DNA of 64,000 nucleotides, taken from contig BAAIJX010000031.1 in NCBI GenBank assembly GCA_054600435.1, forward strand, positions 124,001 through 188,000, given 5' to 3'. The stretch comes from Neophaeotheca triangularis. Its lineage: Eukaryota. Positions within the stretch are counted from its first letter, which is position 1. The number at the start of each line of letters is the position of its first letter. The notes under the pieces were generated by a model that was not told the DNA's origin, did no database searches, and saw only the letters and a list, made by a program, of their open reading frames with translations. Positions 777 through 59,255 of the stretch are shown in pieces. The position numbers and the translations under genes were made by a program.

Positions 777-3700
777 ATGCGTACATCGACAGCAGCGTGG
801 ACGGCCGCGCTGGCGGTCGTGTCCATACAAGGCCCATTCACGACAGCGGAGGCTGCGCCCGCTGCCAGGCAACCCGATCGGCCTCGCTACTACTTCCCTC
901 GAAACATCAAGAGACAATTCACCAACACCACAAACCCAGATCCTGCTCTCGACCAACCCTCAACTGTTGTCGACGACTCGCCGGAAACTCCTGCGGAAGC
1001 AGCACCGGAAATAACTTCAGAGCCCCCAGCTGAAACCCCTTTCGACGACACCCAGCCCGAGGCCGAAGAAGCTGTTCCCACCACTTCCTCGGAATCCTCT
1101 CGCCTTGGGTTCTTGACTGATCCCCTAAATGCCGTCAGCAGTCTTTTCCGCGGTGATCGCACCACCTCCACCGAGGCCGATATTGCAACTCCTACTCCAG
1201 AATTCAATGCTGAAGAACCGCCAATCACGACTTCTTCTAGTGTGCCCTTGGCTCCGGAAGAGCCAGAGGCTACCGAGGGATTCGGCGACGAGGAGGTCCC
1301 GGCTGAGACCTCGACCGCTTTGGAGGAGGAGGAGCCTTGGTGGGAAGAGACTAGCCCCACATCTAGTGAGGAGGTTGCGCCAACAACGACGGCTTTGGAG
1401 GAGGAGGCTGCTGGTTTCGAGACTACTTCGGGTGGAGAATCGGCGCCTACTAGTACCGTTTTCGATCAAGAGCCCGAATTTGCAGAGCCGACTTCGAGCG
1501 AGGGGCCGGCCGCGCCAGCTACGTCGTCTTTTAACGAGGGTATTGTTGGTGCTGAGCCGACCACGACTTCTTTTGATGAGGGCTTCGTCGATTCTGAACC
1601 GACCACAACCTTCGACGAGAGCTTCGTCGACCCAGAGCCTACTGAAATTGGTGAGGCTGCGCCGACTACCACGGCTTTCGACGAGGCGCCTGCGGAGTTT
1701 GAACCTACTTCTAGCGAAGTGCCCATTACCACTACAAACCCGCCATTTACGCCACCGTCCCCCGAGGAGCGAACCACAATCAGCGCATTTATCGAGACCT
1801 CAGTCTTTGATGAAGAGCCGCTCATCAGCAGCACCAGCGAAGCCGCTGCGGCCCCTGAGGAGACGAACGCCGTGGAGGAGAACTTCCAAGGCTCTACTGG
1901 AGGCATTCCCGAAACCATCATTACCCCCACCTCGCCCTCGACTCCCGCAAGCTCCGGCGTCGCTGTCACAAGCGAAGTCCCAAGCTCGACCACCCCGGAA
2001 GTCGAGGAAGAGCTAGCGCCTGAGCTGTCTTCCAGCAGCGAGGTGGCGTCGACTGGTGGGCTACCTGAGACTATTGTACAGCCGACTCTAGAGCCTTCCA
2101 CTACATCCTCTTTCGAGGAGTTCGTTCCAACTACTACTGAAGCTCTCCAAAGCGACCCTACGAGCTCTTTTGCTGAGGAGGTCGAGCAATTTCCTCCTAC
2201 CACTACCGGAGCTTTCGAAAGCACCCCGACGAGCACTCTCATCGAAGAGGTCGAGGAGACACCCGATAACTTTGTCCCCACATCCGAGGGCGAGCCCACC
2301 TTTTTCGGTTCCACCGGTGGCATCCCCGAGACAATCGTCCAGCCCACACCTCAATCAGCCACGACTACTTCAGCTCCAGACGAATTTCCGGAGACCTTCG
2401 ACGAAGCCACCGCTGAGCCCGAAGCCACATCTACCATCTCTTTCTCATCTAGGAGTCTTGCCCCGGAACCCGTTTCCACAAGCTCCACACCCGGAGACGA
2501 AGAGTTCCAGGACCCTGATACTGCCATCGAGGAGCCCGTAGCTTCCACCGGCGGTCTCCCCGAGACAATCGTCCAGCCCACGCCTTTTGCCAGCAGCAGT
2601 GCCGCTGATCAGGAACCTGTCGCCGAGACATCGTCAACCGTCACCCTCGAGCGGACTTCCACTGACCCCGCTGAGGAGGCGAATCCCACTGAAACTGAGG
2701 CAATTGAATTTACAGAGTCTGTCGTTGGCTCTACCGCTGGCGTGCCCGAAAACGTGGCGCAGCCTACGCCCCCGGTGCAAGGGACCTCTACTGAAGCCGA
2801 GGAGGAAGTCGTTCAGGAGACGAGTACTTCTGCTGAAGCTGCCGTTGAAACTCCCTCTACGGAGGTTTTTGAGAGTACCGAGGCTGTCGTTGGCTCTACG
2901 GGCGGCGTGCCCAGCAATGTCGTGCAGCCTACGCCTCCTGTTCAGCAGACTTCGACGGAAGTCGAGGAGCCAGCTGATCAAGAAACGACTCCTTCTACTG
3001 AAGCTGCTGCTGAAACTCTCACCGAGGCTGTCGAGGCTACTGAGCCAGTCATCGGCTCTACTGGTGGTGATCCCACCAATGTCGTGCAGCCTACGCCTCC
3101 TGCTCAAGGGAGTTCGACCGCCGCTGACGAGCAGCCTTTCCAAGAACCCACTACTTCAACTTCAAGCGCTGCTGAGACTACTTCTACGGATTTTGAGAGT
3201 ACTGAGGCTGTTGTTGGATCGACTGGTGGCGTCCCCAGCAGTGTCGTCTTGCCTACGCCTCCTGCTAGCAGTGAAACCTTGACCCAAGAGACTTCGACTG
3301 AAGTCGCAGAGCAGCCCTCTGCAGAGATGACAGAGCCAGCTGTTGGATCGACTGCCGGTGTACCCGACAGTGTCGTCCAGCCGACGGCCTCTGCTAGCAG
3401 TCGAAGCTTGTCCCAAGAGAACCAGTCCGAGGCCAGACCTGGCGAACCCACCTCCACAGAGGGTCCGGAAGCGACCGCCCCCTTCGTTGGTTCCACTGGC
3501 GGCGTACCGAGCGAGATCGTTCAGCCGACCCCCAGCTCCAGCGTCACTAACGTGCAGGACGAGCCGGCTACCGAAACCGATACTGAAGTTGAGGCCGAAG
3601 AAACCCCTGCCTCCGTCATCGGCTCCATTGGCAGTGTCCCCAGTAGCGACATCCAGCCGACGCCAGCCAGCAGCAGCAGTGGCGCGCAGACTTCTGCACC

Positions 3701-6700
3701 CGCTGCTGGAGAGACCATTGTCGAAGAAAATGAGACCGCCAGCTCGGTCGTTGGATCTACGGGTGGCGTGCCAGGTAGCATTGTGCAGCCTACCCCGAGC
3801 AGCGAGGTCGAAGAGGCTCCTGTTCCCGAGACTACCACTGCTGTTCAAGAGACTGCGCCTGCTGTTGGATCCACTGGTGGTGTGCCAAGCAGCGTCGTTC
3901 TGCCAACTCCCGGTACCAGCGACGCCGAAAGCGCGTCTGAAGCTTCTACCAGTGCCGCTGGCACAACTGCTGGCATTTCGAGCATTGCGGTTCAGCCGAG
4001 TCCCTCCGAAGCTTCATCTGGCCCGGTCGAACAGAACCCCACTGTTGCTCCCTCGTCAGTTGGCTCTACTGCTGGGATTCCTGAAACAGCTGTCCAGCCA
4101 ACGCCAAGCGGAGCTTCCGAAGAGGTCGCCACTTCTACCGTTGGCTCGACTGGTGGCCTTCCGGAGGTCATTGTTGCACCCACTCCAACTGTGTCTGACC
4201 TCGAGGAGCAGAGCGAGGGCGCAAGCTCTGGTCCCAGCACTCGTCCAGCTGCCAGACCTGTCCAATCCGGAAGCCAAAGCGCTCAGTCTCCTGAAGGAGA
4301 CTCATCTATCCTGACTGACGTTCAGCCCACTGGTACCGGCAACGCACCAACTGTCGAGCCTGAGCCCACTCCCTCACTCACCGACACTGAATCGACAGGA
4401 ACAGGCGAGGTGCCCCCTCAAACCGTCCAACCGACTCCCACACTGTCCTCTGGAAGCTCCTTTCAACCCACCGAAGCCTCAGACAGCAGCGCCACCGCGC
4501 CCATCATCGTGGGTATCTCCACCGTTATTGAAAGCGCTACCGAGCCATCAGCCGTGGAGTCGGCCCTCGAATCGGTTGTTGGCACAATATTGACGCGTTC
4601 CGCTGAACCGCAAAGCGTCGTGCCTACGGGTGTCTTGCCTTTGACCACTGAAACCGATACTCCGGCTGAGAGCTCTGCTATCCTCAATACCCCCGCCGAC
4701 AGCAATCTCCCTCGCCCCACCGCTGAAAGCCAGGCCCCCAACGACACCCTCCCTACTGCCAGCTCGCAGGACAGTGATACCCCGGTGGTACCACTGCCCC
4801 TGCCCATCTCCACGGCATCCCGCGCTTCCGGCACCGGCGTCCCCGAATCCGAGGCTGGAAGCTCGCCAGTGGTTGTTCCTACGACTACGTTCCCCGACAC
4901 TGGCGTTCCTGTTGTTCCTACTTCTGACGCTGTAGAGTCCTCGGATGCTGGCGATTCTGAAGAATCGTCTGCAGTTTCTGATACTGGTGTTGGGGCTGCG
5001 CCGACTACTGCTGCTCCTGGCTCTGCTAGCTCTGAAGCTGGGGAAGCCGAGTCTGTCTCTCCAACTGGCACTGGCGTTGGGGCTGTACCGACCACTGCGG
5101 CACCCAGTGGGGAAGTTCCTGCATCCTCCGCTGAGGCTAGCTCGCAAGTCATCTCCTCGTTTGTATCTTCGGTGGCATCGCAGGTTTCTGACGTCGTTTC
5201 TTCGGCACAATCTACCGTCGCCTCGACATCTGCCGGCACCGGCGTTCCTGTTGCAATCATTAGTGGGGATGCTTCGAGCCAGCTGTCGAGCCTGGAATCT
5301 TCGCTTGTCTCCGAAATTTCGAGTGTTGTGGCCACTGCTACTACCCCCGGCGCGTCAACCTCTTTGGCTGCCGAAATCTCTGACATTATGTCCAGCGCTG
5401 GTCCCACTCTTGCTTCGGACCAGCCACCCACAGCGGTTCCCGCCAACTCTACGCCTGCCGAGGCTCCGGTCGTGACGTCTTCCGGTACCGCACCGGTAGA
5501 ATTCGTGACAAGCTCAGGCTCCTCTGGAAGCACCGCGATCGTGCCTGTTCCAGTTGAGACTGAACCGACGGACGCTTTTCCCCTCAGCACCGCCGTCCAG
5601 TCTGGAAGCACCATGGCCACTCCCATCCCCGCCTCTTCCGCAGCACAGGAGGAATCTTTGGAGCCCAGCACCACCGGCTCAGAGCCCACGACCGCCGTAC
5701 CTGTACCCGTTACCTCAGAGTCTCCTGAATCCTCAATCGAGGAATCTGCCCTCCCAGAATCTTCACCTTCAGTGACAATCACCGGCTCAGCTGGCACTAC
5801 TGTCATTCCAGCTGTCTCCGCAACCGCCGAGCCGACGTTTACTCTGAGCACATCAACCGACAGTTCTAGCGTGGCTGTTGCTATCCCTGTGCCAGTCACG
5901 AGCGAGGCTGAGACGCCTGCTCTTACCACCGAGCCGACCGAGAGCTCGGACGCAATTGTGCCTACTGATGCTGCTTCTTCTGTTCCCGCGAGCGAGAGCT
6001 CTGGTGGCAGTTTCACCAGTGGCGAGCCTGTTGCTTCGCCGCCTGCGCTTACTACCGAGTCCGCTGAGAGCTCGGATGTCGCAGTCCCAACGGGTGCTGC
6101 ATCTTCGACTCCCACGAGCGAGTCTTTCGGTGGTAGTGTTACTAGTGAGGAGCCTGTTGCTTCGACGCCTGCGCTTACCACCGAGTCCGCTGAGAGCTCG
6201 GACGCGGTCGTGCCTACAGATGCTGCGTCTTCTGTTCCTGCAAGCGAGACCGACGCTGGCAGTATTACTAGTGAAGAACCCGTTGCCTCGACACCAACGA
6301 GCAGCCTTTCCGACGTCACGGAGACTACAACACCAGCCGAGAGTGTCGCAGCGACGCCCGACAGCACGGAAAGCCCTTCTGCCCTGCCCACTTCGCTGAA
6401 CGAAACCGAGACTACTGTTCCCGAGCAATCGACCACTGCGGTCCCCGTCGTGCCCACTTCTGACGCTACCGGAGAATCTAATGTCTCTGCCACCGTTCCC
6501 CTAGGCACTGACGCCTCGGTCTCCTTGCAGACTTCTAGTAGCCTGCTCGAGACCGGCGCTACCTCGACCTCGGCTACGAGCGAGGCAGTCATCCCTGGCG
6601 CCACCGCCGATTCGACTTCTCAAGCTTTTGAAACTGCTCCATCCGAGACGACTCCCTCTGAGGCAGCCATCCCTACAGAAGCACCTGCAACAAACAGCCC

Positions 6701-7823: not shown

Positions 7824-9835
7824 GGCCTTTCCCCGAAGCGCAGGATTGAGAGTTTAGGTGTTGGAAGCAGCAGACGGACCGTTTTATACCACCATGAGCC
7901 CACGGCGCAATCTTCCTTTTCTTTTCTTGTTTGATCTGTTGTCGAGATACCGATTTCCTTTTTTTTTGAAGAACATGGAGCGGAAGGAGGAGAGTAGAAG
8001 TAGAGGAGAGGCGTTACTGAATGGAGAGCTGGCTTTTCACACTTCACTTCGAGATTTTTGTATCTTATCATTTTGTTGGCCCCAAAGCCCTTGTTTGGGT
8101 CTTTGGTTGGCCGGATCCTTGTCCACGGACTTGGTATCTTTTGATTTTTTAGTCTCAGTGGAAGAGGGGGAGAGGGAGAGATGGGACTTTGTATATAAAT
8201 GCCGAGGTTTCTCATGGTATAGGAGAAGGAACAAAACATCAATTCACCTTTTGATTTGTCCGTACTCCTTGTCCCGTTGCTTCCGTTCCCTCTTGTCTCC
8301 TCGAGTCCTTGATGAACTTCTCAGCAGTGGTGAAGGGGGATTTTTCACTGGTTGCTCGACCCGTGCGCGCGCACTTCGGGTACCTTGTTTCACCCTGGAC
8401 AGAATCTAAGGGTCTCATCTCTCGTCGATCGCACGACATTCGAGAAATATGAATTCTATGACCTTCGTTCTTTCCAGATACGACCATAGCTTAGTGAATA
8501 TAAAGCATCCCGTCCGCTCTGCTATTTCAAGCACTGAAGCGGGTGATTAGTACTACGGTGGGTGACCACGTGGGAATCCCACCTGTTGTATCTTTTTTTT
8601 GCTTTTTTACCCCTATCCTTGTTGAGTAAAGGAGCCTTTTTGCTGCGTCGAGACTGAGCAAGTTAGAGCGTGTCCGAGCATCCGAGGGTCTGCCTACTCG
8701 TGGCTATCTCTTGATATCGTCAAGGCGTCGATGATAGGCTGTGCGGTGACGCCACGGCTTCGGCAATAATAAGTCCTACCTCGCCTCTGGAGATACTGAG
8801 CATGGGTTTTTGATCGCAGCATGTTGCGCTCGAGTTCCGCAAATACACATACTTGGGCTTTGAGGCCTTTTCTCCCCCGAAGGCGTCGAGGTGTGCAATA
8901 TGCGCTTTTAGATCGTTGTCCACTGTCTCGAATGGTTCAGACACCGGGCGGCTCCTTGGAGAGCAGAGGAGAAGTAAGAATGTAGCTTTGCGACTCATGG
9001 GTATGTCGGACGTCTTGACGGTTGACTTGTCCGACACTGTCGAGGAGATTCTGGTCGATACTTTGGGCTGCGGTCACGGCAGCGAGGCCGGCGATTAGGG
9101 CGGCTCCTAATTATACACCCCTTAGATGCCTTGCGTGCCTTTTGAGGCCTGGGACTATCGATCTAGCCTCATAGGAAGAGTTGGAAGTGTCAGACGAGAA
9201 GGTTGGAGGTTCCAGAAGACTGTGTTATGGGCAAAAGAGATGGTGAGCGGGAAGGCTCTAGCTTTAAAAGTCTCGAGCAAATCTACTGAAGCATTTAAGA
9301 GGGTAATGGTGACCATGGTGTGCAAATAGAACCGTTACGCCGATCCCATGACTTGAATGCGGTGCGGTCCTGAAATGGCAAATGCGAGATTGGAATGCGT
9401 CTTTGCATGCGTGCAGCCAACGAGATTTCCGTGCGACTGTGGGCTTGATACTGTGCTCGTCCACCACCAATTCTCCTCCAAGACGACTAGTTGGTGTCAT
9501 TAGAATCCGAGCACCGCCTCAGCAAAAAGGTGGAATAGCAGTCTTGATGTAGTGGGACCACAGCAGGCTACCTTCCGATGGAATGCCCGCTAGACCAGAC
9601 AATGTCGATGCCACCGACCATCTCATGATCCTCGCGTCTTCCAAGTTGGCTACCTAGGTCGTATAAAGGTGAGGAAGATCACTCCAACATCGCGGAGAGC
9701 CGAAACTATTCAAGTGCTGCAGCTGTTTTCCTGACTGACGCTATGTGTGGTCATCGCACGTTCGATCAATCAACTTCTCCTATCTTGTTCAACCGTCTTC
9801 AGTACGTCGTTAAGCTCAAAACAGCCACCAACACC

Positions 9836-10571
9836 ATGTATTGGGCTGCAATCTTGCTTGTGGGGCTCGTCACTTTGACACAGCCCACAAGCACGAGTCG
9901 GTTGATCAGCTCAACGACCTGAGTGACGAAGCCCGCAAAATTCGAAATGAGGCCATCAAGATCGGTAGCGCGGACATTGCACTTCTACCCCTCGGCATGG
10001 GAAGATATCCAGTAAGTCGTCAATTCACATCGCAGTCGTACAGCACATTGGCTTGTTGTTTCAGGACATCATCGACGGCCTTGAAGCACTTTCTGATAAC
10101 TTGGATGGGGCCGGGGGCACTCTTAATGGCCAGGAGCTAGCCCTCTGTGGGTGGAGCAGCGGCATTGTCGCAGGGGTTTTCTGGCTGTAAGCGGCATTTG
10201 CATTCGACGGCCACCCCCTTTCCAATAAGGCCAAGCTGACACTACCACAGTTTGTCGGTGATCAGGAAGACATGCTCGATTTCCTCATTGAGAAAGCAGG
10301 CCTCGCAGAAATTTTGCCCGTCGCTGGACAGCCTGTTGTAGAAGCACTCCAGAGGCTTGGATTTGCCCTTGACGTAAGTATGCCCATCACGGGTCTATGA
10401 CAACCAAGCACCTTGTCTGGCGTTCATTGTGCTCACTTAGAACAGAATTATGGATCCGCAGTTCAGGATATTTCTGACGACCTTTCAACCGTCACCATCG
10501 AATCGGGGAGGAAACTCCTAGCCAGCAAGGTCGATCAGTGCGTTGGTAGCTACAGCGGCATAGTCGAGTGA
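9836..10571 (+). pseudogene. Four-exon small secreted protein of the UVI-1-like family, apparently frameshifted
   Basis: Signal peptide MYWAAILLVGLVTLTQP from ATG 9836. GT-AG introns at 10012-10064, 10187-10250 and 10374-10445. Peptides LLPLGMGRYP|DIIDGL, FVGDQEDMLDFLIEKAGLAEILPVAGQPVVEALQRL and KVDQCVGSYSG resemble UVI-1-like proteins. Exons 1 and 2 each need a 1-nt correction to stay in frame. Confidence 0.6.
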
Positions 10572-21345: not shown

Positions 21346-22633
21346 ATGGCCACCGACATCTCGCGGCTCGAGTCGCAACTCGAGAACATCTCAGTGCAGG
21401 ACGACAAACCAAATGTGTCGTCAACACAATACAAGCCAAAGGTATAGTCTTCATCACGCAAAGAGACTGGCATGATATGTGCATACTGACACTCACTCTT
21501 ACAAGGCCTCCACAAACACATCGATTCCCCTCGGCTCACAAGCAGCGCAAAACCGCCTCAAACTGCCCCTTCAGAAAATACCCCAAAACGTCGCCGCGTC
21601 CAAGCAACCCCCAACCCAATCCTCCTCCCTCGCAACCAGCATAACAAAAGTCACCCTCCCCTCCCAAGCCGCTCAACAACAACGACCTAGCGCAGACTCT
21701 CGCCCTTCCGAAACCGAACCCACCGAGAACCCCCCAACGACCCTCCTACCCGCCAAAGCCAAACAATTCCACCTAGGCATGTTCGAAATTGGCAAACCCC
21801 TCGGCAAAGGCAAATTCGGCCGCGTATACCTCGCGCGCGAGCGATCCACAGGCTTCGTCTGCGCCCTCAAAGTCCTCCACAAAACCGAACTCCAACAGGG
21901 CAAAGTGGAAAAGCAAGTCCGACGAGAAATCGAAATCCAATCCAACCTCGCGCACCCCAACATCCTACGCCTGTACGGCCACTTCCACGACTCCAAACGC
22001 ATCTTCCTGATCCTCGAATTCGCCGGTCGGGGAGAACTCTACAAACACCTCCGCAAAGCCCAGCGCTTCCCCGAACCCCAAGCGGCTCAATACATAGCCC
22101 AAATGGCTTCGGCGCTCCGCTACCTCCACTCCAAACACGTCATGCACCGCGACATCAAGCCCGAGAACATTCTCGTGGGCATCCACGGCGAGATCAAGAT
22201 TTCCGATTTCGGCTGGTCCGTCCACGCTCCCAACAACAGGCGCAACACCATGTGCGGCACCCTCGACTACCTGCCGCCGGAGATGATCAAGCCCGGCCGG
22301 GAAGAGAACTGGTACACGGAAAAGGTCGATCTCTGGTCGCTAGGCGTGCTCATGTACGAGTTTTTGGTCGGCGAGGCGCCTTTCGAGGACACGCCGGTTA
22401 TGACGCAGAGACGCATCGCACGCGGCGAGATGACTGTGCCCGCTTGGTTGAGTTCCGAGGCCAGAGATTTGATCAAGAGGCTGTTGGTGCTGGATCCGGA
22501 GAAGAGGATTCCGCTGGATGAGGTCGAGAGGCATCCTTGGATTGTCAGGCATTGTGCTAAAGGGGGGGAGAGGGCTTGGCAGAGGGAGAGGAGCGTGGGC
22601 AGTGGGGGGAAGAAGGAGAAGGAGGGAAAATAG
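21346..22633 (+). CDS. IPL1: Aurora kinase (Ipl1/Ark1); exons 21346-21441 and 21506-22633
   Basis: [64 protein letters not shown]. Confidence 0.96.
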
Positions 22634-23452: not shown

Positions 23453-24813
23453 CTAATCGCTCTCATCACCTCCCTGCCCAAAAACTCTCACCAAATCAAA
23501 CCACCCCCCACCCCCGAAACTCGCCTCACTGCGCCCTTTGTTCTCAAATCCCAGACTCTCATAATACGGCACCAGCCCCTCATGACTAAGCAACGCGCAC
23601 CTGTCCCCAACTCCTTGGGACTCCAAGCGCTGCAGGAAAGCCCTGACCAGCGTCTTCCCCAATCCTCGCCCCTGGTACTCGGGAAGTACAGCAAGACTGT
23701 GCACGGCGATGGTTTTGCCGTCCTCTTTGTGACCGCGGCGCACGCCATCGCTATCGGGTTCCGAAGAGGTTAGGGAGGTGTTTGAGGGGATTGCCATGTC
23801 CTCGTCGCGGACGACGGGGTTGGTCGTTTTGGTGGCGACGATGTGGCCGAGCAGGACGGCTTTGCGGTTCGGGGCGCCGGAGTAGACGGGGGCGGAGGTC
23901 GGGAAGGTTACGGCGTTGGTTTGACTGTCTTCGAGGGAGCTGAAGATGCCTAGAGAGAGCTCGCCGCAGGTTTTAAGGCGGTAGTGGAACTGGAGGGGAG
24001 GGTGTTAGTGAGGGTGACTTTCTGGGGCAATTTTGCTTGGGCTTGTAGTAGTTCCGGAGTGAGACTGGGAAGAGAATTGACAGGGTTTCTTGCGAATGCG
24101 TCGGCAGTGGGATGCAGCTCGAATGTGGAAAAAGGACCACCTTCTGATCAGGCCGAAAAGCGGGTGACACTCGAGCGCCACAATCTTTCCTTTGAGGATA
24201 TTCTGCACCGTCGAAGAAAACAAAAGGCAATTCGTCTCCACTCCAATCCCGTAGCAGGCATCCCCAGGCTTATAATCACAAGCGACACACAGGATACGAC
24301 GCTAGGAAAATAAAGCCAACACATACAGCAGCCCAAGGTAACACGGCGCGCTGTCTTGAAAGCCTGAAACACTGCCATTGCAGTAGCTCAAGCTGGACAG
24401 CGCGACCGCCTTTACCACAAGAGGTGCCACTCACAGGGTAGCAGCAAAAGAGAATAGGAAGAAGATTTGGACCAAAAACTAACCTTTTCCCTCGTACACC
24501 TCTCATTCTCGGGGAACGTTGCTTCCTCCAGCAGTGTGCAGCTATCGATATCCGCCAGGGTCAAACTCTGCGTAATGGGGTGCAACTGGTCGCGCTTGGA
24601 GGTCGAGGCGTTGGAGCTCATGGTAGGGACTTCGCCAGAAAATTGTCGTATGAGGTTTTCGTCAGAGTCTTCTTCCTGTTGTTGCTGGCGCTCGGTTTTG
24701 TTCATGTCCATGGCTGGTCTGCGCTTAAGTTCTTCGTCCGTGTCCGGGGAGGTGGTCAGTTCGGGCGCTTTTTCCGTATCCTTGTTGAGTTGAGGGAAGA
24801 GGTCTCTGGGCAT
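23453..24813 (-). CDS. GNAT acetyltransferase, Paa1-like (polyamine/arylalkylamine N-acetyltransferase); exons 24813-24484 and 23989-23453
   Basis: LEEATFPENERCTREK|FHYRLKTCGELSLGIF, GHKEDGKTIAVHSLAVLPEYQGRGLGKTL, LVPYYESLGF, FGGGGWFDL. 494-nt intron GTTAGT...ACTAAC...CCAG. Confidence 0.88.
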
Positions 24814-25659
24814 GCTTTGAGTAGGTGAGGTTGGAGGGTTTGTACTGTGCGGCCAGTGGGATTGAGGTGGTGAGAGTGGCGTACTGTCTGTGACCGATCT
24901 AGTCACGGCTGGTGTGCGGGAGAAGCAGTTGGGCTTCAATGCAGCCGAAGATTCGTCCAGACAATACTCTTCACTACAGGAGCGGGAATAGGTGGTAGAG
25001 GTGGATGGTATGGTGGTCTTGTCTTTGGAGCACAGCAATCCCGGCAGAGGGGCACAGGTGACGTTTCAACAAGCGGCGCGACTCTCTGTGCAGAGCCAGA
25101 ACGTTGCTTGCAGTAGCGGGGCAGTAGAGGTGCAGCTGAACCGGAGATGAAGTTGGCACGTGATTGATTTCTTAATTAGACATATGGCAAACGTGACCAG
25201 GGTGAGGTGAAGTGAGGTGAGGTGAGGTTGAAGATCAGGTCTCAAGTGAATATTCAGGTACCTATCTAAGGCAACAAAATTCTCTTCAAGTCGCGTGATT
25301 AGCAATCAAGGAACATTACCTTATGGTGAAGAAGGAGCGACGACAAGGAAGCAACAACCTAATAAACAGCCCAGCCCAGCATGCCCAGCTCAGTGTCCAA
25401 GTGGGGTGGATGATGAAAGGTGGGGGAAAAGAACGGCCTGCCCAGTGGTGGAGGTGGACGGGCGGCTGCCTCAGGCCAATACCAATACCTACTTTTCTTA
25501 CCTTTGGATGGACAATCTGGAAGCCCCTTTAGGTTAGGTACTGTACTTAGGTATGTAGGTGTTGGATGAGATGCAGCAGGGAACCGGGTGTGTGGGAAAT
25601 TTACATTGCGCAGCATACGGGCAATCTAGCACAGTCGAGGTCAAGCAGGAGCAGGCAAT

Positions 25660-26442: not shown

Positions 26443-28027
26443 ATGTAAGTCCACCTCGTCCCCCCAATCCCTCCAATCCGGGTCCCGCAAGGTCTCACCG
26501 TCAGACCTTCGCTTCGTTGCACAAAAAGACGGCGCAGCAAGAAAACTGACTGATCACATCATTCCCCAGGCCGCGAGTTACCATATCTATAGTCGCCCCC
26601 GACCATGCTCTCGATCAAGAGCTCCTCACCCTCGACCTTCCCCCAGGCCTTTCTTTAGCCGATCTCAAGGGCTTCGTCAACGCCGAGACTCAGCTTCCTC
26701 AAGCCCAACAGCAATTCTACCTCAACAGCGTCGCGCTCACAGGCGATAGCCAAACTCTCGAAGAAGCCGGTGTCAAAGATGGCGAGATGCTTGCTATGAT
26801 GGTTCGGCCAGCAGTTCCGCAAAACAATTCCGGCAACGACATGCGCTCACAGCAGAGAAGACAGGCAGGCGGCGCCGGAGGAGGACAGCGTCAAGGACCC
26901 CAGCAGGGTATGCAAGAGATTGAGACGACAAGGTTGAGTATCTTGGGCAACGCGGGCGCCATGGCGCAGGTGAGGGAACAAAGACCGGCACTTGCCGAGG
27001 CCATCAACGACAGCAACCGCTTCCGTGAGGTATGGCTGGAGATGATCCGCGAGGACGAAGATAGGGAGCGTGACCGTCAAGAACAGATGAGATTGCTGAA
27101 CGAGGATCCCTTCAACATCGACGCGCAGCGCAAGATTGAGGAGATGATCAGGCAGCAGTCGGTGCAAGACAACCTGCAGCACGCTTACGAGCACAACCCA
27201 GAAGGTAAGCAAGCATTTCAACCTTCCTCAATACAACTTCATGCTAACACCATCCAGTCTTCGGCCGCGTCACTATGCTATACATCTCGGTTCTCGTCAA
27301 CAAACACCCCGTCAAAGCCTTTGTCGATTCCGGCGCTCAAACAACAATCATGTCCCCTTCATGCGCAGAGCAATGCGGCATCATGCGTCTAATCGACAAG
27401 CGCTACAGCGGTATTGCCAAAGGCGTTGGCACCGCTACCATCCTCGGCCGCGTCCACAGCGCCGACATCAAAATCGGCAAGGCAAACATGTCCTGCAGTT
27501 TCACAGTCATGGAGGGTAAAGACGTCGACCTTCTGCTCGGTCTCGACATGCTCAAGCGTTTTCAAGCCGTCATAGATCTACGCACGAATCGCTTGGTATT
27601 TGGTGATGGCAACGAGGTCGAATTCTTGGGCGAGGCGGAGATACCAAAGTACATGGAGGAAACTGCTGCTAATGAGCCGACGGTCAATGGACCCAACGGC
27701 ACGAAGATTGGGCAAGAGTCTGGGACGGTTACGCAGAGTGGGGACGCTTCTTCTTCTGCTGCCTCGGGGAGCAATGGAGCTTTCAAAGGAGCAGGGCAGA
27801 CTGTCGGTGGTGGGGGCGATTCAAAAGCGCCGGTCGGCAACGACGGCCCAACACCTTCCGCCACACCCGCTGCGCCTCGCCCGGCTCCTGTTGCTCAGCA
27901 AAGCCATTCCAAGGAGTCGATCGATCAGCTTGTCAGCTTGGGTTTTACTAACCAGCAAGCTGTCGCAGCACTGGATGCGTGTGGCGGGAACGTGGAATAT
28001 GCTGCTGGATTGTTGTTTCAGAGTTGA
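26443..28027 (+). CDS. DDI1: DNA-damage-inducible protein Ddi1 (UBL - retroviral-like aspartyl protease - UBA); exons 26443-26444, 26570-27204 and 27258-28027
   Basis: UBL MPRVTISIVAP..., NEDPFNIDAQRKIEEMIRQ, catalytic FVDSGAQTTIMS, LLLGLDMLKR, and C-terminal UBA (IDQLVSLGF...ALDACGGNVEYAAGLLF). The start codon is split by intron 1 (AT|G). Confidence 0.95.
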
Positions 28028-45393: not shown

Positions 45394-47612
45394 ATGAGCA
45401 TTTACCGCTGTTTCGCATTGCTATGGACTTTGGGCCTGGCAAGCGCGGTTTCTTCCGACTGCGACCAACCGGATGGACCTGAAGTACACATAGCTGTCGC
45501 CGACGGTGTCCTCAATTCCAACGTCAATGGAAGAGTATCACTGATGTTCGCCCCAGAAGGCACCGACCCACTGGCAGACACAGATGTATCGTCCTCGAAC
45601 GAATTCTTCGGCCTGGACATTTTCGACTTTAGTAGTGGAGAAACGGCAACGTTCACGGGCGAAAGCAGGCGATGTGCCCAGGCGAATGCTTTCGGCTATC
45701 CAAATGTCAGCATCGCCAGCGTTGCGCCAGGCAATTACACCGTCCAGGCGTTCCTTAACGTCTACGAGACCGTCACCCGGAGCGATGGGTCGACTGTGAG
45801 CGTTCGCTTCCCATGCGGTGATGGCCAAGCACCCGTTGCTGGTCCTGGCAGCCTTATATCATCTCCTCTCAACGTATCGATCACAGGCCACCCTCAGAAG
45901 ATCCATCTCACTCTGGACTTCGTGGAGCCGGCCATTGAGTTCTCTGGTAGGGAGATTGGAGGTTGCAATCAAGGGAACTACGAGGACACTGGAAACTTGA
46001 AGCACCTGAAAATCCGCAGTGATGCACTCAGTGACTTTTGGCAGCGGGACATGTATGTCGGAGCGAACGTACTTCTCCCTGCTGGCTATGATGAGAGCGA
46101 CAAGGATACCCGCTATCCAGTCGTATATTCGCAAGGTCATTGGCCTGGCGGCCAAGGCGCCTTCAGATATCCCAGCGCGGACTATAGCGAAGCTTGGGAC
46201 GAGGGAACCATCCCAGGAACGAACGCGTCGGAAAGTAGACCCGCCCCCAAGATGATACTTGTTACCATCCGCCACGAGTCTCCTTTCTATGACGATTCGT
46301 ACGGTGTCAACACCGCCAACATTGGGCCCTACGGCGATGCCATTAATGACGAATTGATTCCTGCGATAGACGAAGCCTTCAACACTATCGCAAAACCTTA
46401 CGCACGCATCGCCGAGGGGGGTTCGACTGGAGGCTGGATCTCTGCTGCCAATGTCGTCTACAGACCAGATATCTTTGGCGCCTGTTTCTCGTCTTATCCG
46501 GATTCGCTGAATTTCCACCGGCATCAAGCCATTCATCTGTACGATGCTGAGAATGCATACACTCGGAGTGATGGCTCGCAAGTTCCCTCTATCAGAGAGT
46601 ACGAGAATGATACAGAAGTCATTGTTGCAACAGTAGAGCAGGAGAACCATTGGGAGCTTACATTCGGCTCCTCGTCTCGGTCAGCATTGCAATGGGAGTG
46701 AGTTTCACCGCGTGTAGGCCCTTGAAATAGTTTACTGACCCGACTCCAGCGCCTGGAACGCCGTCTTCGGGGTTCAGGGCTTGAACAACTATCCCCTCGA
46801 GGTTTGTCGTTCCATGCTTGCAGCATTGCAGTTCACAGCTAACGTCCTTTTAGCCGTGGAACAAAGTAACGGGCGAGATCTACCACGGTGCAGTAGAATA
46901 CTGGGCTCCCTTTGATCTGTCTCGTTACATCTCCGACAATTGGGAAGGTCGCAAAAATCTAGGAGAAGTGCTCCGCAACAGGATGTTCATCTACGTGGGC
47001 TCTCGCGACACATACTTCCTCAACGAGGGTGTGATTGAGTTTAAAAAGAATGTCGAGGCTTTCGGAGGTCCCGACTGGGTATGTCAGAATATTGCACTAC
47101 AATTTATGACTTCGATCTAACCATGGCATCAGGCCAACATCACGGTGCTGGAAGGTCTTGCGCACGGCGGAAACTACAATAACCTTCCGCTTTGGGACTA
47201 TCTGGAGCTCTTGGACAAATGGTTCAAGGACCACGCCCCGGATGGTGAAACGCCGCTATCGCCAGAAGTTACCAAACCCCAGTCTGTCGGCAACGACTGG
47301 GAGACCGTCATCAGCCGCGGTGGCCGCGATGCTGCTCTCGGACGGCAGTCCCCGCCAGTGATTCACATCAAGCGTTGGAATCGCCAGACTATCCATGGAG
47401 CCGTGGGAAAGTATGATCCGGGTGTCGAGCTTGAGGCTCAATGGACGGTCAATGGTAACCCCGAGGGCAACAACTTTAATGTACAGCAGGGAGAAACTGT
47501 CACCTTCGATCGTAAGAATTGCGCGAGGCACGGAGAGCTACAACTCGAGGTGACGGCTCGGAAGTATGGCTATAGCCTGGAGAAGAGGGTCAGTAATCGG
47601 GTCAGGATTTAG
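45394..47612 (+). CDS. Secreted alpha/beta-hydrolase (Fes/esterase-like); introns 46698-46749, 46802-46853 and 47079-47132
   Basis: Signal peptide; VLLPAGY..RYPVVY; FYDDSYGVNTANIGPYGDAINDELIP; nucleophile elbow GGSTGGW; YVGSRDTYFLN; AHGGNY. The introns splice in frame. Confidence 0.85.
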
Positions 47613-57249: not shown

Positions 57250-59255
57250 CTACGACAAAAACCTACGGTGTATTAAAACTGAGTCGACGTCTTGACGTTT
57301 TAATAGAAGGCCCGACGTGTAGGTAACTATTAAAAAAGAAATAAAAAACATTATAAGTTTGTCACTAACTTATAGAAACCCACTACCTATTAAACGTCTA
57401 ATTAATAGAAACATGATAGCTATAAACCTAAAGTGCCTATTAACTACTACTAAGATAAGGGAAAGAATTAACCCTACTACTATATAGTGACACTAGGAGC
57501 CTTATAGCTAAACAAAGTATATAATAGACTAAAGGCTAACTTAGAATAAGGCTTAATGTCTACTTAGTTAAAGTAGTAGTAGCTAATATAGAGGTCCTTA
57601 AAATAATCAAATTTATAGTACTCGTAAATCTCTCTATTATAGTTAGAGATATCTTTAGTAATAGTATAGATAAGTTTAGTATTATGACTATAATACTAAT
57701 TATTATAGGTAAATAACATATATATAGGAGTTTACTATAATACTATAATACTAAGACTACAACTTAGTTAGTATTATAGTATAATAAGGGTAGAATGTAA
57801 TAATAGTAATAATAGTAATAGTCCTTTAATGTAGAAACTATTTAATAGTAGATAGGAGACTTCTCTATTAGCTATCTTATATACTTTTTACTATATAGAT
57901 ACTTAGTATTCCTAAGTTCTCTATAGCTAGACTACTATTATTATATTAGCGCTATAGCTATAACAATTACCTCTCTCTTAAATAGCTTATCTATAAGCTA
58001 TTTCCTATATATATTTGTTATAACTATAGCGCTAGTAGGACATCGGCGGCCTAAGCTATAGAGTAGCTCGGGAGTACTAAGTATATATACTATGAAAGTA
58101 TATAAGATAGCTAATAGTGAAGTCTCCTATCTACTATCGAATAGTTTCTATATTAAAGGACTATTACTATTATTACTATTATTACGCTCTGCCCTTACTA
58201 CGCTATAATCCTAACCGAGTTATAGTCTCGGTCTTATAATTCTATTCGATCTTAGAACCTTCTTAGGTTAAGATTTGCTCGGACATTATAGTACTATCGC
58301 GCTCGCTATACCTATAGGTCGATAACGCTAACCTAGTAGACTCCCCTAATACTATAACTAGAGTTAACACCCTATAAGAATAAGAAGAGGTAGCGATAGA
58401 CTAATATATAGTCCTTACTACTACTATTATAGAGCTCTAATAGTAATTAGTAGAGTATACCGCGCCTATCTAGCGAGCTACTAATAGAGTAATAGTCCCC
58501 TATAACGAGTCTAAAAGAGAATATATCGAACTAGAGGACCTAGTAGACATTACCCCTACCCTAGTAGTATATAAGTAGATAGTAGACGAAGATCTACCTA
58601 CTAGTATAACGATAAAGGAGCGAAAGTCTTATATCGATATTGAGAAAGCTTTTCGCTTAGCTAAACTAGTAGTTTATAGGAGTTACCCTAACCTCCTAAA
58701 AGTATAGACGTTTATCTAGTAATATGAGCGTGTATTTAAAACATACCCTTATATTTACTTTTATTAGTATAAGTATATCTAGTATGCTATAGGCCGCCTA
58801 TATAGCCGCGTTAGCTAGAACTAGGAGAGTAAAGAGTTATAACTTAAACGTAAAGAGATAAAATAGCCTATGTTTAAAGAATAGCTACTAGATTAGATCC
58901 TCGACCCTAAAAACCGCGCTATAAACATAGTATTCCGAGGTTTTAGACATGTCTAGAGAGCGACCTAATCTATTCACGACTACCTCTTATATATTAAAGA
59001 CTCTCTCTACGAGGCTAATGTCGCCCTACTACTAGAGTATATACTCCTAACCCTTATTAAGACAGGTCTATAGGAAAACCTTAAGGCTAAGCTAAATGCC
59101 TAGCTAACGGTACTAGATAACTAGTATAATGTAAGACCGAGACTATAACTCGGTCGGGATTATAGTAGAGCGAGGGTAGAGCGTAATAATAGTAATAATA
59201 GTAATAGTCCTTTAATATAGAAACTATTCGATAGTAGACAGGAGACTTCACCGCC
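57250..59255. mobile_element. RIP-degenerated LTR-retrotransposon nest: about 220-bp LTR-like copies at 57744-57965 (-), 58016-58238 (+) and 59130-59255 (-, partial), with a gag-like remnant at about 58240-59130
   Basis: Abrupt AT-rich block with TpA excess and CpA/TpG depletion, no ORFs, and three related copies of one segment with TG(TTA)...(CTTA)CA-type ends partly mutated to TA. Confidence 0.85.

Follow-up and report, generated by a model that had tools for sequence, protein, structure and literature searches.

To our knowledge, only a few conserved intronic control elements have been described in filamentous fungi. Among the cases closest to the one presented here is the first intron of A. 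nidulans meaB, which measures 331 bp as opposed to a median intron of 59 and contains clustered GATA sites that drive an antisense RNA (PMC4046813). Fungal TPP riboswitch introns and a series of short conserved non-coding motifs form a second group (PMC5640933), and human SSAT1 has an unproductive isoform that is repressed by polyamines (PMC3543422). We have analyzed a gene for a PAA1-like acetyltransferase in a 64-kb stretch of Dothideomycete DNA, referred to as the window throughout, and find that its single intron holds an element that, as judged by comparison of orthologous loci, is real, unrecorded, modestly conserved and of a generally known kind.

The coding frame is read from an ATG at 24813 and joins two exons into a protein of 288 amino acids, the splice uniting ...CTREK with FHYRL... 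(for coordinates see the table). The MPRDL start and an identical break codon in exon 1 are common to the orthologues, and full-length orthologues, annotated as well as transcript-derived, read ...REK/F.YRL at the identical joint. Identity to the exon 2 protein ranges from 45 to 99% among the 120 matches listed, and the named matches in a set of 162 proteins belong to Dothideomycetes (Friedmanniomyces, Teratosphaeria, Zasmidium and Zymoseptoria, for example; identity about 55-64%). A few of the protein matches are named 'polyamine acetyltransferase', and serotonin N-acetyltransferase is among the best solved-structure relatives. From database names we take yeast PAA1 to be the presumed counterpart of this enzyme, whose substrate is likewise presumed. 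One match from Aureobasidium, P0114 ('polyamine acetyltransferase, variant'), has a gene model that starts within the intron and continues into exon 2; its name may be a transferred label, since a full-length model bears it too. The model P0001 is probably a gene-caller fragment. A product starting from the invariant methionine of exon 2 was considered and rejected, as the N-terminal part of the fold would be missing. Note that at least one additional intron lies within exon 2 in one orthologous locus (L004, 900-1185), with no counterpart in the window.

The acetyltransferase has a divergent neighbor, a DDI1-like gene at 26550-27392 (+) with ubiquitin and Ddi2 HDD domains. The head-to-head arrangement was found in 11 of the 38 loci searched (L001, L008, L011, L012, L013, L015, L017, L020, L021, L028 and L030), a long-kept divergent pair. 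A protein kinase gene at 21476-22633 (+), presumably Aurora/IPL1-like, converges on the acetyltransferase from the other side and had no match in the DNA flanking the orthologues that were searched. Upstream of the gene, the hexamer ACGTCA, which we take to be CRE-like, occurs in 9 of 19 loci where 2.3 are expected, with the window site at about 25066-25061 (-); it is possibly a stress-responsive bZIP site. The divergent promoter region further contains a tandem run of the 5-nt donor-like unit GTAAG at about 25691-25665 (-).

The intron itself, with its GTTAGT donor and length of 494 nt, was confirmed as initially annotated, and we add a CAG acceptor and a CACTAAC branch site. A metagenome scan returned 80 loci, 32 of them high-scoring and fungal; the bacterial loci L033-L080 were excluded from the intron work. 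Among 30 fungal loci examined, 26 have the intron in full and at an identical codon, three begin within the intron and one, the contig L006, is spliced, its exons being joined precisely at the predicted splice point. Intron lengths range from 141 to 621 nt (n=26), with a median of 318 for 19 non-redundant sequences. Near-duplicate introns (L013-L015, L021, L028 and L032) were left out of all counts, and L010 was also left out of the enriched-word counts, the helix-cell counts and the Fisher test. That the other introns of the window are short received loose support, from 18 candidate introns of 43-138 nt in a crude motif scan that considered lengths up to 140 nt. The orthologous introns are likewise long, their median of 318 nt comparing with the 59 reported for A. 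nidulans (PMC4046813), so that length is a family trait, and the retention of length and position together with the conserved non-coding blocks inside supports the view that the length of the intron is no accident. In two orthologues (L009:1752 and L022:940) the donor dinucleotide is GC rather than GT. A search for further orthologous DNA yielded only bacterial and archaeal GNATs in prokaryotic contigs, and no match in viral contigs. In four of 11 listed RNA contig sets, which derive from aquatic and marine metatranscriptomes, coverage is confined to exon 1 and the 3' end, mostly at 95-100% identity; no contig in these four sets spans a joint or the intron, or displays an isoform.

The main finding concerns the interior of this intron. 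In the window and its six closest orthologues (L001-L004, L008 and L010), a series of short blocks recurs in the order GTnnYAC (m1), TGCTGYRTGYGYTG (block A), a pyrimidine run, CTAGCG, CACGTGA, a stretch of variable sequence, GTRYnAC..CGTTT (m2) and CAGCnCAT. The blocks, which were absent from the initial annotation, begin at the 3' foot of a large hairpin, stem 1, and extend downstream from it. CTAGCG is present in five of these seven sequences (the window, L002, L003, L008 and L010) and missing from L001 and L004; CACGTG likewise occurs in five of seven, the window and L004 being without it. Block A contains a donor-like GTATGT at 24326, equally overlooked before, and such a GYRTGY is found in block A of all seven close sequences, with weak U1 pairing (-1.8 kcal/mol in the window).

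As evidenced by pairwise alignment, sequence similarity above shuffled controls (z>5) is seen in 7 of 21 intron pairs, compared with one of 21 pairs of upstream regions and none of 15 pairs of downstream regions, the compared pairs having a fourfold-site identity of 0.41-0.59, with the pair L008/L010 set aside. Taken alone, alignments of the window to its orthologues are weak (z -0.1 to 3.5). A combined profile of m1 and block A recovered each left-out intron in place, with 21-30 bits against a maximum of 11.3 for the window background, and a sequence-only model matched just those seven introns in 174 kb. In introns of more distant loci the full profile does not rise above background, and the full element is limited to seven close sequences, six of them independent. 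Individual words reach further: CACGTGA is the top 7-mer, present in 7 of 20 introns where 0.4-0.5 are expected, GCWGYATG occurs in 7 of 20 and TCGTAY in 9 of 20, and none of the three is enriched in the flanks, although the words were chosen after viewing the data and the sequences are related. The words favor the sense strand, with 11 sites against 2 reversed for CGTGAY and 20 against 8 for GTRYNAC, a bias that may be plain common descent. Blocks are thus kept in sequence, order, spacing and sense strand, whereas the DNA between them and the promoter have diverged, and conservation of non-coding blocks above their flanks identifies them, at the level of sequence, as a conserved intronic cis-element.

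Table. Features of the acetyltransferase gene and its intron, in positions of the window
Feature	Position	Strand	Basis or remark
Coding exon 1, PAA1-like GNAT acetyltransferase (MPRDL...CTREK)	24484..24813	-	Translation, orthologues, partial RNA contig cover
Single phase-0 spliceosomal intron, 494 nt	23990..24483	-	Translation; position shared by 26 orthologous loci
Coding exon 2, GNAT core	23453..23989	-	Pfam Acetyltransf_1, E 1e-11
Cryptic donor-like GTGAGT, frameshifting if used	24429..24434	-	Not conserved: internal GTRAGT in 0/20 orthologous introns
Strong 80-nt hairpin (stem 1)	24337..24416	-	z -6.9; 3' foot overlaps motif m1; genome-specific
Motif m1, GTnnYAC	24338..24344	-	Window and 6/6 closest orthologues; 5-7 nt ahead of block A
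Block A, TGC(GG)TGYRTGYGYTG, best conserved	24315..24330	-	Leave-one-out 21-30 bits
CTAGCG after pyrimidine run	24300..24305	-	Acceptor-like AG; complementary to 3' half of block A
Probable degenerate CACGTGAY equivalent	24246..24253	-	2 mismatches; placement inferred
Motif m2, GTRYnAC...CGTTT-like	24155..24170	-	Second m1-type word, inside stem 3; also in held-out L007
CAGCnCAT equivalent, complementary to block A	24096..24105	-	10 bp, pair probability about 0.8
Branch site CACTAAC	24004..24010	-	Sequence
CACGTGA, about 345 nt before ATG	25157..25163	+	Window site is upstream, not intronic

The reading that we tentatively prefer, at somewhat less than an even chance, is that this element of short blocks acts on the pre-mRNA and tunes the splicing of the intron. 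An RNA-binding protein might read the blocks, the blocks might pair with one another, or both might apply; block A could find its partner either in CTAGCG close by or in the more remote CAGCnCAT ahead of the branch site, and m1 could pair with m2. The blocks would then set the efficiency with which the single intron of the gene is removed. In all seven close sequences, the frame of unspliced or internally spliced RNA is closed by a stop within the first 31-76 nt of the intron, as is expected of any intron. Transcripts that retain or mis-splice the intron would meet such an early stop and be lost by nonsense-mediated decay, and through this loss the element would tune the level of the enzyme.

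Complementarity between the blocks is consistent with part of this scheme. Every conserved block has a complement that is itself conserved. Reaching across the pyrimidine run, block A can pair with CTAGCG in 36 of 42 cells, the best 7-bp helix that the alignment offers, and it can pair with the distal CAGCnCAT in 39 of 48 cells, the best 8-bp helix; for m1 and m2 the count is 34 of 42. In four of the seven sequences, pairing of block A with the stretch that precedes the branch site has a probability of 0.7-0.98 (Fisher p 0.026, with n=6 and a region chosen after the fact), and the held-out L007 retains m2 followed by an 11/11 complement to block A of L003 (p 0.0005). On a prior MAFFT alignment, 80% of the cells of the two proposed helices pair as opposed to 19-50% when the helices are slid, although this was to be expected, as the structure was derived from the same sequences. 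A parallel-complement control equals the true helices (35 versus 36 of 42 and 38 versus 39 of 48), a preference for pairing within the own species is absent (p 0.72), and the registers shift among species. RNAalifold returned no consensus fold, and covariation, which the initial annotation had proposed as a check, was no better than in column shuffles (0.222 versus 0.197, 84 of 500 shuffles, at the low power of six independent sequences). A further hairpin, P3, whose end lies in the CACGTGA region, is possible in most close orthologues but was dropped, as it does not reach significance in any of them (z -1.6 to +1.3).

A close rival, which we consider less likely than not, is that the blocks are transcription factor sites in DNA and form an enhancer within the intron or a promoter, be it internal or antisense, of the meaB type. 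CACGTGA, the top enriched word of the introns, is a classic DNA site. In Aspergillus, CACGTG is a conserved promoter motif (PMC4046813). The window has CACGTGA upstream of the gene and not in the intron, as turnover of sites would yield, although a copy this near to the gene is expected by chance in roughly 5% of cases (5 sites in 64 kb). Furthermore, in L001 and L002 GTRYNAC is obtained when the m1 word is read from the opposite strand, the missing consensus fold fits a DNA module, and inverted repeats of a single DNA word would mimic the complementarity. The divergent promoter is shared with the DDI1-like gene in 11 loci, which makes it plausible that gene-specific control resides in the intron. 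Speaking against this reading, the promoters of the same species pairs are unalignable, yet their introns hold four or five blocks in order; the motifs lie almost all in a single orientation, and the bipartite motif is not repeated in 128 kb of window strands, nor in the flanks. If the blocks do form a DNA module, it would be an ordinary yet unrecorded intronic enhancer. With six independent sequences at hand, we place action on the pre-mRNA slightly ahead of action on the DNA.

A more specific version of action on the pre-mRNA, an undescribed RNA switch that alternates between two states in the introns of fungal PAA1 genes and that polyamines would shift, directly or via a sensitive protein, to set productive splicing, appears doubtful to us. 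In one state, block A would pair locally with CTAGCG and conceal its acceptor-like AG; in the alternative state its partner would be the far-off CAGCnCAT next to the branch site, and m1:m2 would close a pseudoknot. Polyamines as the trigger are only a guess, prompted by the presumed function of the gene. If true, such a switch would be a fungal feedback loop that has arisen independently of mammalian SAT1.

Slightly more doubtful still is the idea that a small non-coding RNA, be it an H/ACA or C/D snoRNA or a member of an undescribed class, resides in the intron and is released after splicing. Long introns at conserved positions often host snoRNAs, and in the present case conserved blocks lie at either end of a 170-250 nt span. 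Atypical intronic snoRNAs have been described in fungi (PMC5640933). Yet a search against Rfam, suggested by the initial annotation, gave two chance matches in the window region and none in 13 orthologous loci, and several orthologous introns are just 141-206 nt long and free of the blocks. The H/ACA-type snoRNA that the same annotation had considered did not hold up, as its middle stem is unfolded, no ACA follows stem 3, and neither an H box nor a terminal ACA is conserved in position in the alignment. Its AAAGGA box is indeed present at 24193-24188, but the intron has two other hexamers that are ANANNA-compatible, three in all. For a C/D snoRNA, RTGATGA was found in 0 of 21 introns, and CTGA is missing in L003 and unaligned elsewhere.

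The features originally flagged in this intron were its hairpins and a second donor. Stem 1 folds as had been described, with -46.2 kcal/mol and none of 200 shuffles as good, whereas the region proposed as stem 2 (24228-24189) forms no stem (z +1.0, 176 of 200 shuffles as good) and stem 3 (24176-24117) is modest, with a z of -2.45 for boundaries picked after the fact. The whole intron reaches z -1.9 against shuffles, so that the label 'highly structured' applies to the hairpin of stem 1 and not to the rest. In a fold screen of the entire window (6392 windows of 80 nt, with z calculated for 250 pre-screened ones), the 80-nt segment at stem 1 scored z -5.0, and five others are listed at -5.0 or lower, making it rare but not unique. 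Other well-folding windows, with z of about -3.6 to -5.3, are 3021-3100, 6481-6560, 46221-46300 (-), 59081-59160 and 9821-9900. No second copy of the hairpin was found within the 64-kb window in a check for a MITE or transposon, nor a target duplication by eye. Contrary to the prediction of a conserved structure, the orthologous introns fold no better than shuffled sequence (whole-intron z -2.4 to +1.6), a local window below -4 occurs only in L008 and L016 and at other positions, and stem 1 has no counterpart among them. The second donor, GTGAGT at 24434, does lie 49 nt into the intron, and its use would shift the frame, so that translation ends within exon 2 after a few codons; its pairing to the 5' end of U1 is about equal to that of GTTAGT at 24483 (-5.7 and -6.3 kcal/mol, respectively). 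As no orthologous intron has an internal GTRAGT and the hairpin is unmatched, both are private to the genome of the window, lineage-specific and probably incidental.

Two other layouts were tried for the same region and rejected. An internal acceptor at 24302 would read a stop-free frame of 98 codons, which follows the internal CTAG at 24301-24005 (-) in frame with exon 1, but the acceptor has no branch consensus before it, and the frame is lost in the orthologues as judged by eye. Inspection by eye also spoke against a stwintron or recursive splicing, with which neither the donor nor the CTAG context agrees.

That nothing in this intron is functional, i.e. that a long intron contains chance hairpins and that shared blocks are residual similarity, is as improbable as the hosting of a non-coding RNA. 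It describes the hairpin and the donor at 24434 well, and agrees with the weak alignments between the window and single orthologues; for the blocks it is already largely refuted by the leave-one-out scores of 21-30 bits, the unconserved flanks, the retention of m2 and its complement in L007 and the fact that 26 of 26 introns are long. Finally, a polyamine-sensing riboswitch that chooses between the donors at 24483 and 24434, modeled on the fungal TPP riboswitches and proposed by the initial annotation as a metabolite-responsive splicing switch, is very unlikely: despite comparable U1 matches, a strong hairpin 18 nt past the second donor and the precedent of human SSAT1, the second donor recurs in 0 of 20 orthologues, the hairpin is not conserved, no aptamer-like consensus emerges, and the fungal SDC motif did not bind spermine or spermidine in in-line probing (PMC5640933). 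Nothing but the presumed function of the gene links the element to polyamines. The absence of a TPP aptamer, as stated before, was borne out by covariance-model searches of the window region and 13 orthologous loci.

In the literature on the gene, the intron, splicing and non-coding RNA that was accessible, subscription journals being mostly outside it and supplements being a place where the locus could be listed, the element is unreported. The gene that gives rise to SSAT-X presumably belongs to a different GNAT subfamily from the acetyltransferase studied here, for which S. cerevisiae PAA1 (PMC10220653) is the presumed orthologue. Among the conserved fungal motifs described in PMC5640933 (SDC, amd, ies6, hexA, atypical snoRNA and ribosomal-protein motifs), the likeness lies in short conserved non-coding sequence, some of it intronic; those motifs have covarying stems, which the blocks of the acetyltransferase intron do not yet have, and the main text of that paper contains the words 'acetyltransferase' and 'GNAT' zero times and ties no motif to an acetyltransferase. 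With the fungal TPP riboswitch introns of the same paper the element shares its intronic position and two donor-like sites in the window genome, but it differs in having no aptamer, an unconserved second donor and no covarying structure. As in meaB (PMC4046813), an unusually long first intron carries clustered short motifs; the motifs differ, and the regulatory role that was experimentally shown for meaB, with its GATA sites and antisense RNA, stands against motifs known here from sequence. As in SAT1/SSAT-X (PMC3543422, PMC7337517), the level of a polyamine acetyltransferase would potentially be tuned by an unproductive isoform, but SSAT-X arises from a cassette exon in intron 3, whereas the intron described here has no conserved cassette. 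The element is small, mapped and placed in a one-intron gene, and if its control of splicing were to respond to polyamines, it would constitute a fungal parallel to the regulation of SAT1.
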